Source: Eledone cirrhosa (Eukaryota). Taken from it: a DNA stretch of 64,000 nucleotides. Position 1 is the first letter of the stretch, and each line of letters starts with the position of its first letter. Positions 2,757 through 64,000 of this stretch are shown piece by piece. The stretch covers positions 89,900,001 to 89,964,000 of the forward strand of contig OZ024740.1 in the NCBI GenBank assembly GCA_964016885.1, given 5' to 3'. The notes beneath the pieces were generated by a model, which had not been told where the DNA came from, did not search any database, and saw only the letters and a program-made list of their open reading frames with translations. A program made the position numbers and the translations under genes.

Positions 2757-3814
2757 CACAACAGGCAGAGAAACCCCCAAAGCAAGTGCTTCCTTAAAAT
2801 CCCGCACGTGGGCGAGAAAACTAGCAACGCTATCAGCAGCGCCATACGGAGGAAGAGCCTCGACATCCACTTGGCCCACTCGAGGCCCTCCCCTCCCTAC
2901 GGAGATGCATCTCTAGGAAACCCGAAAAATTGGCTGACACGTGTTCCCTCAGAATCTGTCCGATGCGTCAAACGAACTGTTGCTTACGCACGTACGTCGT
3001 ATACCAGGTAGAATGTGTCAAGAAGTGTAACGACTTCTACATCGGTAGCAGCATCCGGCAACTACATGTTCGTATCAAGGAGCACATGAACGTTAGGGCC
3101 TCGTCTTCCCGGAAGCACATAATAAAATACGGAAACAAAGACGGAAGGCCCATTGTCACAGTGTTAGCGACGGCACTTTAAGAATCAAGGAAGCATTTTG
3201 GATCAAACGCCTCGGACCACAAATAAATAACCGATCCGCTAGAAGTGAGACGAGATGGCTGGTGTAAACAAATGAAACAACAACAACAACACACACACAC
3301 ACACGGTAGCATTCGAGCGATTGTTATTGTGTATATATCGGGTCCAACACCGACCTACCGACAGACAGCAAGCAGGCGGACCACCTATAACAACATCACA
3401 ACTGCCAGTATCAAATATAAAAAAGACTTACGGGGAAAATGTGTACGCATTGATACATCACCGCCCCATTACTCTAGTATGGAAGACTGCCGCAAACTTT
3501 GTCGGACCGCAGCTATTCCACGCGCACACTATAAACAACAGAGGCCACGTATTGTGCCTCTCGGACAAAAAACATTTCCCCCTCAGAAAAGTCCCAGTTG
3601 ATGGATGCGAAATCCAAAATATAGGGACAATTAAATCATTTCCAAGGTAAATTTAATTTATGTTATTAATTTTACACTCTTTCCTACCTTCTTCTACCTC
3701 CTCTACGTCTCATTCTACAATTCCTCTTACATCTCTCTCTCTCTCATCACCACTTGATTCTGTTACCTGCAGATTTACCCATCTGCATTGTTGAGGCTTA
3801 CAAAACCACCAATT
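2757..3814 (+). mobile_element. Degenerate 5'-truncated Penelope-like element (GIY-YIG end plus 3' terminal region)
   Basis: Frameshifted peptides CFLKIPHVGEKTSNAI and CLRTYVVYQVECVKKCNDFYIGSSIRQLHVRIKEH are homologous to the C-terminus of ORF 27771-30410. An HHR-like motif follows and the element ends at (TA)n 3815. Confidence 0.85.
3591..3628 (+). ncRNA. Degenerate variant hammerhead ribozyme
   Basis: GTCCC-AGTTGA-T-GGAT[GCGAA]ATCC-AAAA-TATA-GGGAC, the same layout as 27568-27603 with co-varying stems. Confidence 0.55.
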
Positions 3815-3939
3815 TATATATATATATATATATATATATATATTTATTTAAAATAATAGAGGTGTAACACACGAGTTATGATATATTGGTAAACAAATTG
3901 TTCCCAGTGAAAAATAGTATAATTAGGAATAAGTAAACA

Positions 3940-4590
3940 TTAGTAATAGTATTGGTTAGTATTCAGTTTTGGTTTTAAGTTTTACCGGTTGTGCATTGCT
4001 AATGCTTTTCAAAAATAATTTTGAGATAGAGCGCCCGTGATGCTTGCTCTAATCTGATTAGTTTTGGAAATTCTACCTGTTTTATGTGAAAAAAGTGTCT
4101 CCAGATATATTAAAATAAGTTTCGCGCCAATTCGTGTTGAACAAATTCTTGTGGTCAAAACAATTTTGATTGGTCCGTAGAGGTCATGCGAATGATAACA
4201 ATTGATTTTGCGCCAAATGTAGGTTTGTCTCGGCTGATTGAGAAGTCACTGAAAAATAAGTCTTTCAAAACAAATATGTGTGTGTGTGTGTAGTAGTAGT
4301 AAAGATGTTGGTTATTGTGATAATGGTCAGCAGGGATGTGTATGCGACCGTAGCCTGTTGACAGTTCAGATGCCTATTAAGACAAGTGTGTGTGTGTGAG
4401 TGTGTGTGTGTGTGTGTGTGTGTGTGTGTGTGTGTGTGTGTGTGCATATGTGTGTGCGTGTGTGTGTGTGTGTGTGTGTGTGTGTGTGTGTGTGTGTGTG
4501 TGTGTGTGTGCTTGTTACGTAAGTCGGATATTTGATTACGGCTTCACAGAAACACTTTAAACGTATATCGTATAATTTGTCCAGGTGTAC
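3940..4590 (+). repeat. Dispersed repeat, unclassified (inverted copy at ~37320-38150)
   Basis: 3940-4210 matches the reverse complement of ~37750-38150 (e.g. GCTTTTCAAAAATAATTTTGAGATAGAG). Both copies abut (TG)n/(CA)n tracts. Confidence 0.65.
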
Positions 4591-4644
4591 CATTTTTAGA
4601 CTGTTAGTTTTTTCATTGTTCTGCTATTGTGTGTTAGGTTTTGC

Positions 4645-5548
4645 CTACCACAATGTTCAATTTGTCAAGCTATTTAAACGTAGGTTGTTACTCTCAGGAC
4701 CTTCCCTTATTGAGTGCTTTGCTAACTCATTCATATTGTAGGTCGACTTTGCTTGCCCACAGCCAAAGCTTCGATTTTACGAAACATCCATATGTATATA
4801 TATATATATATATATATATATATATATATATATACGTAAATAAATCGTTTTTTTTTTTGTTGAAATCGTATTCCGAAATATATTTTTATACTTTAGTAGC
4901 GGCATGCTGCGAATAAAAAATAAACATCTACCAATTGATTTTCATTCCGACTTATTATTTGAAAACTTAATCCGCACATCAGTTAGTTTATTAACCGAAT
5001 TTGTTTGTTTTTGTTTTATTATTAATAGACAAATCATTATGGTGACAATTCTCACTGATTATTGTTGCTCATCTGTTCCTCCTGTTTTAAACAGATCGCG
5101 TCCTATCTAGTTTATCGTTTCTTTTAAAGATGTTTCTCTGATCAGCTTCTATGAATGTGCTAGTGTCTATGTGCGGGTGTATATCTCTGTGGTGATAAAT
5201 CTACTTGACTCAGTACTTTACTTATAGATATCCTATCAATGAAGTAGCCTGATGAAATAGGAGAAGAATATTAACACATGGTAAGCGACGATTGGATGCA
5301 ATTTCCATTTAAGAATATAAACAACTTTGTAATTTCAAGGATCACATAATGACATTTGCTTAAATGCAAAATATCTGAGGGTGAAATGGCTACGTACATT
5401 GCAATAACGTGATACATTGAGACAACATAACTTTAAAGTCTATAACGTAAATAATCATATCGTGAATGTTATTTAACTTGTTCCGAGACACGTGACTGCT
5501 ACATAGAGAAAACCAATAGGCCACCAAAAATGAATTTTATATATATAT
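4645..5548 (+). repeat. Left copy of ~0.9-kb inverted duplication (partner ~8050-8940)
   Basis: Colinear reverse-complement match across a PLE tail (4645-4790), a TA tract and ~710 bp of non-repeat DNA, with scattered substitutions. Confidence 0.85.
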
Positions 5549-5584
5549 ATATATATAAATTCATTTTTGATGGCCTATTGGTTT

Positions 5585-61305: not shown

Positions 61306-62813
61306 CTAATGCATACAATTTACAGTACCAGAACTTTTAGGTTTATAATAAAAGTAAGAATTAGAAATGCCGTGGGGGCAAGACGAGAATATCTCAGACT
61401 TTCTATTAAGTAAGAGTTCCCTAGAGAAAATTATAGAGTGGGTCTCAAGGATACAGAGATTTCAGAATTTGGTGTGTGTTGATAGGTTATTAGAGCGTGC
61501 TACTATTCGCCAATTAAGGCTATATGGTATATTAGCCCCCTTAAGATCCCAGATATGGTGTGCTAAAGAAGTAGAATTCTTAAACTTAACATGTTTAAAA
61601 TTAGAGATATGAGAATTAAACCTAGTCTTAAAAGTGTTAGATGTTGAGCCTACATATGTGCTATTAGAGGAATAAGTTTTAACTACACAAGCATAAACGA
61701 TGTTCTTAGAGAGGCAGTTACCGTTTAAAGGGCAGTTAACACTCACTCTACAGTTACACTTCAGGGTGCTATTAATTGGCTGAAGTAGTGATGCATCCCT
61801 CGTAGGGTTACTATGAGATAAGGTCTGCTCAGGTGGTAAGGCATTTATGGATCTATCCAGACTAGTAGTACGCAGAGAGGAGTAGCCATCCCTAATGTGC
61901 CCATCGTTAGTGCTAGCTAAATGAGAACTAATATTAGGGGTGGTAGAGAATGATAGTTTAATTACATTTTTATTAAAAATACCATGGTATTTATTAATAG
62001 GAGCGACATGTTTCTCTAAGATAGAAAAGAAAGACCTAGGGATGTTAGTTAATACTTCCTGATTATATGGCGGGTTAAAATAAGTATTTAGTCTCCTTCT
62101 ATTTCTATCCTTACCAACTCTACCGTTATCTAATATCCCATTATTATTAAGATCTGGGTTACTACGAGGACTAGTTAAAACCACATTGTTATAATCAGCC
62201 GAAACTCCATTGAGTCTCTTTCTGTTTCTACCTTTAGTATATCTACTGCTATCTGGAATCATATCAAAAGGATTAGGGCTGATAATAGGATCAGTAGAAA
62301 CAACACTATTAGAATTAGATTTAGCATAAGCATCACCACTGAGTGCGCGCTCAGAGCGCCCAACTTGATCCCTAGAACTATTAGATTCACTATTAAGAAT
62401 CCGGTGGCTTAACTTATGGATGGGTTCGGATACACCTATCTGATTTCTACGATTCTTATGCATTCTACTCCCATTCATGGTCATATTATGGGATATTATA
62501 TTATTATTATATGTAAGCGGAGACTTTCTAAGGTTACTATTATTATAATGTATTTTACCAGAGTAACCGGAGCTAGCTAGGGCGTTATTATAGTACTCTG
62601 CATGTGCATTAAATATTCATATGTCCTTAGAGAGTGTGGAAATTCTATTAGATACACCATTAATTATAGAGCTTATCATAGATTTGGGGTGGTTAGAATT
62701 GGGACTAACATAAGAGAGTATTTCATTTGGCTTATGGAAGGGTTTAACACTATTAGTGACCAAGTCCAAAGTCACATCTAAAAAGTTGACCGCTCTATCA
62801 TTTCTATCTATCG
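61306..62813 (-). pseudogene. Truncated PLE ORF (RT thumb, long linker, GIY-YIG)
   Basis: ORFs 62617-62889 and 61462-62484 are in the same frame, and reading continues past TGA 61462 to TAG 61306. Confidence 0.88.
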
Positions 62814-62872
62814 TATATATATATATATATATATATATATATATATATATATGTGTGTGTGTATGTGTGTGT

Positions 62873-63273
62873 GTAGATAAATCTACCAAAATATACGGTA
62901 GTGTCCAATCCGTATGAAAAGCTCAATGTAATCCAAATACCATGAAGAGAGAAGATGTATTCAAAAATGTTTCGATGTAAATCTCAGGAAAACAGAGTCA
63001 AGATAAATTAATAAAAACAATGAATAAAAACAAAGAGACAGTTCCTTATATTAAAAAATGCATCATTTTACGATCGAAATAATTATTTCTGAAGACAGCA
63101 TATATATGTGTAGGTATGTATATTTCCTCTGATAGTTTTTAAAATGTTTACATATATCTATATTATATACATACCAACACACACATATACATCCTGAAAT
63201 GATCGTAAAATGATGTATTTTTTAATATAAGGAATTATTTCTTTGTTTTTATTCATTGTTTTTATTCATTTAT
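62873..63273. mobile_element. Inverted PLE-end insertion with long-stem-II HHR (63083-63213, +)
   Basis: TTATTT-CTGAAGA-100 nt-GAAA-TGATCG-TA-AAATGA. The left arm carries the long tail. Confidence 0.8.
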
Positions 63274-63286
63274 ATATATATATATA

Positions 63287-64000
63287 TAGTATTAAGGATA
63301 CTATTTATGGTTATGTATATACTAAAACCTTTTATAGTTATATATATAGTATACCCTAAATAGTGAAAGACAGCAATTTATTACTATGTTATTAACAGTA
63401 AGATAAATAGCTCAATGTAACAACATCAGTTGTTTTACAGAGGAGTTATATAGAGATTAAATGAAACAAAGTTCTGTTGAAATCATTTATCTGCTTACAA
63501 TTATTTCTTCCAAACCGAGGTTTGGAGTCTTCGGAGCAATTATTCAGTGATTTTTAACACTACTTGACCTCCTTTTCAACACAAGAGACATATAGAAACA
63601 TATGTATATATTGACCCACAGTGGGGTGACATCCATTATAATAAGATAACATGGTCATTTACATACAAAGATTACAGTCATATTAAAGGACAAAATTAAA
63701 ATTAAAATAAAACATTGGCAGTCTACTAAGATAAAGCAAAAGGAAAGTTTGGAGTAGCCAGTGTATGCAACAGTCACACGTGTGGCATGCACGCGTGTGC
63801 TATTTATATAAGATTATAGTGCGGCAGATTGTTACAAGTAAAACAAGCGGTCAAAGCAGGCAATCAAGAGGATCATGGGGGTGAACTGGTTAAGCATTAT
63901 TTACACACACCTGTACGATATAGAAGCCCGTGTGTGGAGAAATACCAAAAATATCAAAACTATTACAAATGAGAAGCAAAACAGCACCACTGTCATCGTA
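63287..64000 (-). mobile_element. PLE 3' region related to 44917-46042, runs off window
   Basis: Colinear but diverged; HHR at 63492-63538 with the same CCGAAGA core and TCCAAAC/GTTTGGA stem II. Confidence 0.82.

Follow-up and report, generated by a model that had tools for sequence, protein, structure and literature searches.

In a 64,000-nt stretch of Eledone cirrhosa DNA (assembly GCA_964016885.1, contig OZ024740.1, positions 89,900,001 to 89,964,000; hereafter the window, with positions counted from its first letter), families of Penelope-like elements (PLEs) were found to carry a hairpin with a 2-nt bulge in the tail that follows their hammerhead ribozyme (HHR). Folding of the sites gave the form 5′-(R)CUC-YR...loop...YR-[UY bulge]-GAG(Y), in which the conserved heptamer YRTYGAG is the 3′ strand. 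The hairpin is very probably a selected structure. It lies in the optional tail of PLEs, probably chiefly those of the Hydra clade and their non-autonomous derivatives, and is apparently a structured element of PLE tails that has not been described before. As an explanation of the whole, we favour on balance a conserved 2-nt-bulge hairpin that would serve as a protein-binding site and set the start of reverse transcription.

The YRTYGAG motif and its base-paired partner

A sequence-only reading of the window had listed 15 sites of a motif, YRTYGAG(Y)NCT, in HHR sense between the HHR and the start codon of PLE families that otherwise do not align, and had proposed an internal downstream promoter element, a reverse transcriptase (RT) loading signal or a translation signal. 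All 15 strings were located in the window at or within ~10 nt of where they had been placed, and represent 12 families rather than 15 independent cases. When the tails of 12 families were cut at the hammerhead cleavage site, YRTYGAG was present in 8/12 in sense and in 0/12 in antisense (shuffled sequence: mean 0.48, maximum 4 in 2000 shuffles). The best 7-mer found de novo scored 10.1 compared to a null maximum of 7.8 (0/150 shuffled sets), the null taking the post hoc choice into account. The enrichment by strand and position over shuffled sequence was thus upheld. The 7-mer alone is common, with 66 exact matches in the whole window, but it is concentrated in sense tails, with 16 sense and 0 antisense matches within 3648 tail bases (1.5 expected). 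The list of tails was partly steered by the sites of the earlier reading; among the eight testable families with an HHR from motif-blind scans, five had the exact 7-mer, one a one-base variant and two neither.

Besides, 14 of the 15 sites are preceded, in the same copy or in a sister, by a whole or half HHR, while no HHR was found for the site at 4708, and the site at 10592 counts as 3′ of an HHR solely by circular permutation. Measured from the ribozyme cut, YRTYGAG starts at 41–43 nt in family A, at 67–82 nt in families B, C, D, F, G, H and N, and farther in I and J. A location between HHR and start codon was checkable only in the intact element of family J, and was not confirmed because the homologous place (27730) reads TGTTGTG, with GTG for GAG. 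Nor do the families lack all alignment: the 5′ partner CTC-YR is kept upstream, and 10–13 nt around the motif are common to families F, G and I. The trailing (Y)NCT was loose in the window, and occurrence across PLEs in general appears to give way to a restriction to one clade. The earlier observation as a whole was partly confirmed: a conserved cis-element stands, with an RT loading signal favoured of the three options. The element is not a linear motif, since the 7-mer makes up one strand of a bulged hairpin whose base pairs show compensatory changes, and this argues against a downstream promoter element.

Pairing was assessed in 12 families with the motif held fixed and the upstream sequence shuffled. 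The register with a 2-nt bulge was significant (Fisher p 2.1e-6 for first copies and 5.1e-5 for second copies), and 5/12 families individually reached p<0.05. Bulges of 0, 1, 3 or 4 nt gave no significance in the same families (p 0.33–0.97), and the 49 control YRTYGAG sites elsewhere showed no significant 2-nt-bulge pairing (1/49 at p<0.05).

Covariation was examined in an alignment of 11 rows, one copy per family, from which families D and J were excluded as non-fitting; E and K have no motif. Paired cells made up 88.3% of 77, compared to 77.6 ± 2.6% after shuffling and at most 46.8% with slid partners. Both sides had changed in 4/7 pairs across the 11 families, the pair below GAG being A-U in five, G-C in five and G-U in one, and both G-U and U-G pairs were present in the sense reading. 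The columns without any variation were those of the U that opens the bulge, of the G and A that follow the bulge, and of the two bases with which these pair. The first bulge base was U and the pair preceding it standard in 11/11 rows, and the U-A pair (11/11) and the adjacent C-G pair (11/11) were likewise kept throughout; family J, outside the alignment, does not have the U-A pair.

A hairpin model built from 14 copies found tail candidates at 58255, 62965 and 9773 that the linear motif had missed, the last of these (family P) because YR is absent there. In public run data, consisting of contigs with depth from four runs (X1, X4, X6 and X7) of three studies, the pair-breaking G26639 of copy A2 reads as the pairing C (depth 2242195/2269599 in X1, 655.8/655.8 in X4, 73.6/73.6 in X6 and 664/735 in X7). 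A Pol III B box, a branch point or splice acceptor, a k-turn and a self-complementary dimerisation palindrome were dropped on sequence grounds, judged by their consensus forms.

Insertion ends and a probable link to the Hydra clade

Many families in the window have two 3′ ends, a short and a long one. In the eight families with both, 15/15 short arms stop 2–17 nt before CTC, and family medians of the distance from short end to hairpin were 8.4 ± 3.9 nt. The distance from ribozyme cut to short end was 17–62 nt (SD 15.2; r 0.97), and a short-end spacing as tight was obtained in 26/40320 permutations (p 6e-4). This set includes family L, which requires a circular reading, and family I, whose hairpin is model-found. 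Loose ends in run X1 match the short end of family A. The near-constant distance to the hairpin and the variable distance to the cut show that the short end follows the hairpin and not the ribozyme. Long ends lie 42–126 nt past GAG.

Two of the hairpin families, G and N, are associated with broken, 5′-truncated ORF (open reading frame) remnants that by their motifs appear to be of Hydra type. The linker CxCx5C before the endonuclease is present in the remnant at 61462–62922, and the remnant of family N has its third C replaced. Both families show (TA)n insertion and an HHR near the 3′ end (a variant core in N), as in the Hydra clade. Family E, without hairpin, follows a linker that we take to be Neptune-like. 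The Hydra consensi were inspected because of these ties. The clade comprises PLEs with a C-terminal endonuclease, (TA)n targets, an HHR near the 3′ end and the CxCx5C linker (PMC8557442), features shared with the elements here; its hairpin and short-end rule are undescribed in the parts of that paper available, and the words "stem-loop", "hairpin" and "bulge" do not occur in its main text as available. RWK and DKT motifs mark the N-terminal part of the clade's protein, which the 5′ truncation has removed from both remnants here. In File S7 of the same paper, the hairpin was seen by eye in 4/6 Hydra consensi, from coral, sea cucumber and sea louse, with differing upper pairs (TA/TA, TG/CA, CA/TG). 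In Hydra-2_Amil (coral) and Hydra-2_Ajap (sea cucumber) it is separated from the cut by ~40–45 nt, and Hydra-1_Ajap has two at its start, directly before the ORF. By eye, no hairpin was seen in Hydra-1_Amil and Hydra-1_Obim, whose consensi stop 47 and ~36 nt after the cut. The trailing NCT of the sequence-only reading has a counterpart in the ACT that follows the lower stem in the Hydra consensi, again by eye. No such hairpin was found in the literature searched, as far as the running texts were accessible, including PMC8557442, PMC3846280 and a retrozyme preprint (10.64898/2026.07.22.740005).

The hairpin is probably typical of the Hydra clade. An external set of 80 PLE loci from other eukaryotes (79 from metagenomes and one from a genome) was collected with the family J profile; viral sequences gave none. 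From 70 HHR candidates, score and length filters and the removal of four judged false by eye left 45 sense tails, or 40 after de-duplication. YRTYGAG was not enriched in these 40 tails (3 compared to 1.65 expected), and the hairpin model gave nothing convincing (best E 0.22). As the 80 loci contain no Hydra signatures, this negative result is limited to other clades. A search for homologues of the Hydra-type remnant that extend further was without result. In the Naiad and Chlamys consensi, seen as passages, none of 17 GAGCACT matches was hairpin-like, no structural scan having been made there.

Several observations weigh against the hairpin and its assignment to this clade. RNAalifold gave no consensus structure, the minimum-energy fold was exactly as proposed in only 6/12 single copies, and longer context abolished the pairing in C, H, A1, A2 and F2. 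Families D, E and K do not have the bulged form, and pairs are broken in I, L, M and H. The sequences that were counted had also guided the choice of alignment bounds and structure, so that pair counts lean in favour of the hairpin, and families that may share ancestry are not fully independent. The evidence for the strand is weak, with the lower stem collapsing in antisense only in F1 and N2, and several copies pair on both strands. In family J, the place homologous to the motif has GTG for GAG and its partner is 115 nt away. A Hydra-type ORF is attached in only 2/12 families, and the sea louse consensus Hydra-1_Crog, by eye, retains the shape but has AG in the bulge and one U-U mismatch, without the triple-forming bases.

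Proposed function and alternatives

In the one PLE system studied in vitro, Poseidon_Ac, tail ends were reported to be RT start sites inside the RNA, with RNA 3′ of them required and ribozyme cleavage not; the binding site was narrowed to ~150 nt (PMC11167929). The conserved hairpin, standing immediately 3′ of the short end, is consistent with this missing site of protein binding. It seems to us somewhat more probable than otherwise that the hairpin is bound by the element's own protein and that this sets the RT start. We infer that the hairpin acts as RNA, that its binding partner is the protein of the element, with arginines making the contact, and that this binding fixes the start. The RT-endonuclease of the element would bind the bulge, possibly via a segment rich in arginine, much as in an arginine sandwich, and this binding would mark the RNA as template and position the polymerase. 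One cDNA would start ~8 nt upstream of the hairpin base, giving the short end with the hairpin uncopied, and a second start 40–125 nt downstream would give the long end with the hairpin kept. An R-rich stretch precedes W/Y-x-NPP in each of the two Hydra-type remnants.

Poseidon_Ac resembles the elements here in being an HHR PLE with two 3′ ends distinguished by a tail, an RT start inside the RNA and a need for 3′ sequence. Poseidon_Ac differs in that the stem-loop named in the accessible parts of PMC11167929 is AC-rich, those parts mentioning no conserved hairpin with a bulge; the Poseidon_Ac tail measures 30–40 nt, compared to roughly 75–170 nt in the window, and in the printed template CAUUGAA was seen by eye near +117 without a CUC-YR partner. 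Stringent long interspersed nuclear elements (LINEs), such as ZfL2-1/ZfL2-2 (PMC4176376) and UnaL2 (PMC1636434), have, close to the 3′ end of their RNA, a stem-loop to which their own protein binds in picking its template and which retrotransposition requires. Judged from its position, the hairpin may be bound by its own protein in the same way, which would make it akin in manner of working to these RT-recognised tail stem-loops, with form and placement differing. L2-clade LINEs are reported to discriminate by a family-specific loop, whereas here the hosts are PLEs, the bulge module is common to families and the loops vary freely and cannot be aligned; besides, the short end lies upstream of the hairpin, which is left uncopied.

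The bulge itself has a likeness elsewhere. In HIV-1 TAR, G26 pairs with C39. In the arginine sandwich, a bulge pyrimidine forms a triple with a stem pair, namely U23 with A27-U38 in TAR, with the arginine on G26, and in 7SK the U40U41 bulge with A43-U66 (PMC6189040). TAR and 7SK SL1 share with the hairpin the order of base pair, bulge pyrimidine, then stem G and A, with an A-U pair able to take the bulge U, and 7SK ASM3 also has a 2-nt UU bulge (PMC6189040, PMC3017588). In the window, a bulge pyrimidine follows a base pair and an A-U pair comes two steps on (11/11); the first of these was not found in the sea louse consensus. Unlike in TAR and 7SK, the bulge is on the 3′ strand, the GAG helix points toward the hairpin base and the host is a retrotransposon; common descent is not implied. 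From the matching invariant columns, a base triple and an arginine contact are predicted for the hairpin. A bolder and rather doubtful extension is that Hydra-clade PLEs independently acquired a TAR/7SK-type arginine-sandwich module in at least four animal phyla, which would be bound by their own arginine-rich segment, act as a ruler for an internal RT start ~8 nt upstream and license non-autonomous tails.

Other functions were weighed against binding by the element's RT-endonuclease. Where copies stand in tandem, the next ORF has the tail of the preceding element as its leader, and a protein of element or host bound to the hairpin in the 5′ untranslated region (UTR) might tune translation. 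A conserved ATG ~10 nt after the hairpin in 3/3 family A copies fits such an operator, as do the paired hairpins before the Hydra-1_Ajap ORF; family I may have two as well. It leaves the tracking of the hairpin by short 3′ ends unexplained, however, and the hairpin is kept in tails with no ORF in reach, at distances of ~10 to 100 nt from a candidate ATG, for which reasons we regard an operator as unlikely. We give slightly less credit to a DNA hairpin in single-stranded cDNA or an integration intermediate, recognised or cut nearby by GIY-YIG, with the short end as resolution site. Earlier work cited in PMC11167929 found the Penelope tail to be needed for endonuclease recognition, PMC8557442 attributes the tail to endonuclease-mediated resolution, covariation is blind to RNA versus single-stranded DNA, and several copies pair on both strands. 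Both tail ends are nevertheless RT starts on RNA in the in vitro system (PMC11167929), the G-U and U-G pairs stand in the sense reading, and the invariant bases match an RNA protein-binding module.

Recruitment of a host transcription factor, by a TAR/7SK mimic on nascent RNA or by a core promoter element in DNA (the first option of the sequence-only reading), is improbable. It would account for the local identity with the TAR and 7SK bulge, and the internal promoter of D. virilis Penelope was reported in this region (PMC2377424). A DNA promoter element would need neither compensatory pairs nor a fixed 2-nt bulge, the element RGACGTGY reported for Penelope in the same paper is not matched by YRTYGAG, the apical loop is variable and this reading predicts no tie to the short end. 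Residual homology between related families, combined with a post hoc choice of pairing and no present function, is the explanation that we credit least. The 7-mer is common, a strict hairpin descriptor gave 52 matches in 325 kb of unrelated loci and several families fit poorly; against it stand the specificity for bulge size and the control sites, the broken pair restored in reads, and the occurrence of the same hairpin, with other upper pairs, in three further phyla.

PLE RTs are the closest retroelement relatives of telomerase, and how they recognise RNA and choose between two internal starts is at stake here. What is gained is a structural module of 14 nt in which certain positions are invariant, together with a rule for spacing and a protein segment as candidate. 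The module may serve as a marker for annotating the ends of Hydra-type and non-autonomous PLEs and, as a compact template signal, may be of use in retrotransposon-based DNA writing.

PLE families and other features of the window

The window is AT-rich animal DNA, rich in (TA)n tracts; a repeat at 2437–2745 is presumably an octopus SINE (short interspersed nuclear element), judged by its appearance. PLEs are represented by one intact element, of family J, by broken ORFs and mainly by short 3′ ends, frequently in inverted pairs (Table 1). Family J has a single ORF with RT plus a GIY-YIG endonuclease at the C terminus: profile matches at 27747–30407 gave RVT_1 with E 3.6e-11 and GIY-YIG with E 3.2e-4, the latter below the curated cut-off of GIY-YIG. 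Pseudo-long terminal repeats (pseudo-LTRs) from partial tandems (26726–27798 compared to 30174–31250 in family J, 99.4% identity), truncated inverted copies, numerous palindromic ends and an optional tail with short and long ends are further PLE features found. HHRs near the 3′ end were found by descriptor scans; Rfam gave no hammerhead on the whole window, only microsatellite-driven microRNA matches, and a weak HH9 match (E 0.33) on a short stretch.

Table 1. Positions of the PLEs, hairpins and hairpin candidates in the window; the last column gives the site in the sequence-only reading.
Feature	Position	Strand	Remarks	Earlier site
Intact PLE, family J	26726-31250	+	Whole element; RT + GIY-YIG ORF, two pseudo-LTRs	
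Intact ORF, family J	27771..30410	+	RT + GIY-YIG; not Hydra-type	
Possible split hairpin, family J	27611..27736	+	Possible 5′ strand CTC-(T/C)A 27611-27615, 3′ strand TG-[TT]-GTG 27730-27736	
Motif, family J relative	3789..3798	+	Possible partner TTC-CA near 3641-3645 across candidate intron 3647-3772	
Broken PLE ORFs	2748-3286, 23920-25320, 42229-43131, 61462-62922			
Putative Hydra-type ORF remnant, family G	61462..62922	-	Broken; CxCx5C linker, R-rich stretch before YFNPPY; family G tail ~2.2 kb downstream, same strand	
Putative Hydra-type ORF remnant, family N	23920..25320	+	Broken; GLYRDDGL, R-rich stretch ahead of WYNPPY; 3′ end cut short at 26337	
Hairpin A1	12544..12575	+	Decayed, two broken pairs	12563
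Hairpin A2	26635..26666	+	Broken pair G 26639	26654
Hairpin A3	39163..39194	-	ACTC-TAC / GTA-[TT]-GAGT	Absent
Hairpin B	17029..17061	+	ACTC-CAGT / ACTG-[TT]-GAGT; HHR in inverted arm 16851-16905; short end 5-8 nt upstream	17049
Hairpin C	19516..19548	-	ACTC-TGCT / AGCA-[TC]-GAGT; of HHR, GAAA half only; pairing lost in longer-context fold	19518-19528
Motif D	18920..18952	+	Fully paired hairpin, GNRA-type loop, no 2-nt bulge; sister copy 6732 (-), HHR near 6815-6848	18940
Hairpin F1	45037..45078	-	HHR 45126-45164	45041
Hairpin F2	63405..63446	-	HHR 63496-63534	~63410
Hairpin G	59141..59170	-	GGCTC-TGT / ACA-[TT]-GAGCT; canonical HHR 59226-59257	59145
Hairpin H	53759..53788	-	TA bulge, one G-G mismatch; U3-A8-type HHR 53845-53883	53762
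Hairpin N1	49540..49593	+		49581
Hairpin N2	12697..12749	-	Long apical arm; variant HHR core near 12822-12778	12699
Hairpin candidate I	58255..58291	+	CTC-TG / CA-[TC]-GAA, one broken pair; model-found, not minimum-energy fold; sister 62965-63001 (-)	
Second, downstream motif I	58327..58337	+	No clean 2-nt-bulge partner; sister 62928 (-)	58327
Partial hairpin L	10569..10604	+	3′ of HHR 11702-11756 only if 10526-11810 is read circularly	10592
Hairpin M1	4687..4720	+	Sister 8862-8895 (-), different broken pair in each; no HHR found in window	4708
Hairpin P	9773..9806	+	GCTC-AGAAA / TTTCT-[TT]-GAGC; model-found, without YR; no HHR found in window	

Compared to the Hydra clade, family J has DKG instead of DKT, a different linker and a CCHH-type finger, and it shows 28% identity over 119 aa with the family G remnant. 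The stretch between its two possible strands (27621–27715) is pyrimidine-rich, begins with GT and ends with GAG, an unusual acceptor, and is a candidate 5′-UTR intron between HHR and ATG; no joint across it was among the run matches listed. At 27614, most reads have C, giving CTC-CA as in family B. The candidate intron of the relative (3647–3772) ends with CAG. A hairpin split by the candidate intron in family J would be a lead only. Both of these diverged families also have an HHR-like fold with the core CnGUUGA, with U at the usually invariant A6 (27566–27606 and 3590–3628, + strand).

HHRs of the U3-A8 covariant type, known from Schistosoma PLEs (PMC4209133), were seen at 53845–53883 (-) and 55986–56062 (+). 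A non-coding unit of 1.28 kb (10526–11810), bearing a single HHR and a terminal direct repeat of 30 nt, is either retrozyme-like or a non-autonomous PLE. Family K (5780–6365 and 39329–40357) likewise consists of non-coding units, tandem and inverted, with a canonical HHR (39832); the bulged hairpin is absent in sense, and a motif-like hairpin stands in antisense at 6169 and 39745. Families M and P (8056–9850 and 4648–5537) have a common palindromic body and two differing tails, each with a bulged hairpin, and a further short candidate was found in this region at 9308–9331 (-). Families D and E have their last ~25 nt in common, including an ATG, and differ upstream, E being without the motif (6603–6640, 7155–7190, 19040–19071 and 41834–41870). 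Family A (12426–12614, 26515–26710 and 39121–39296) is an insertion of small size and palindromic form, made up of a tail and a half-HHR whose stem III is long; its loop III includes TTGAGCT, and its summed contig depth in run X1, which is not a copy number, was far above that of the family J ORF. A long hexamer microsatellite (59640–60080) lies within the 3′ UTR of the Hydra-type element G.

In the external PLE loci, the tails after the HHR of L017, L032, L035 and L040 were found to have another hairpin-like motif in common (ATCGATTGCTGAA...AGCA). The telomere-type PLE tails of L008, L009, L022 and L048 share CTCTGCAA at 25–35 nt after the cut, and L008 and L009 show a partial pairing resembling CTC-TG / CA-TT-GAG.

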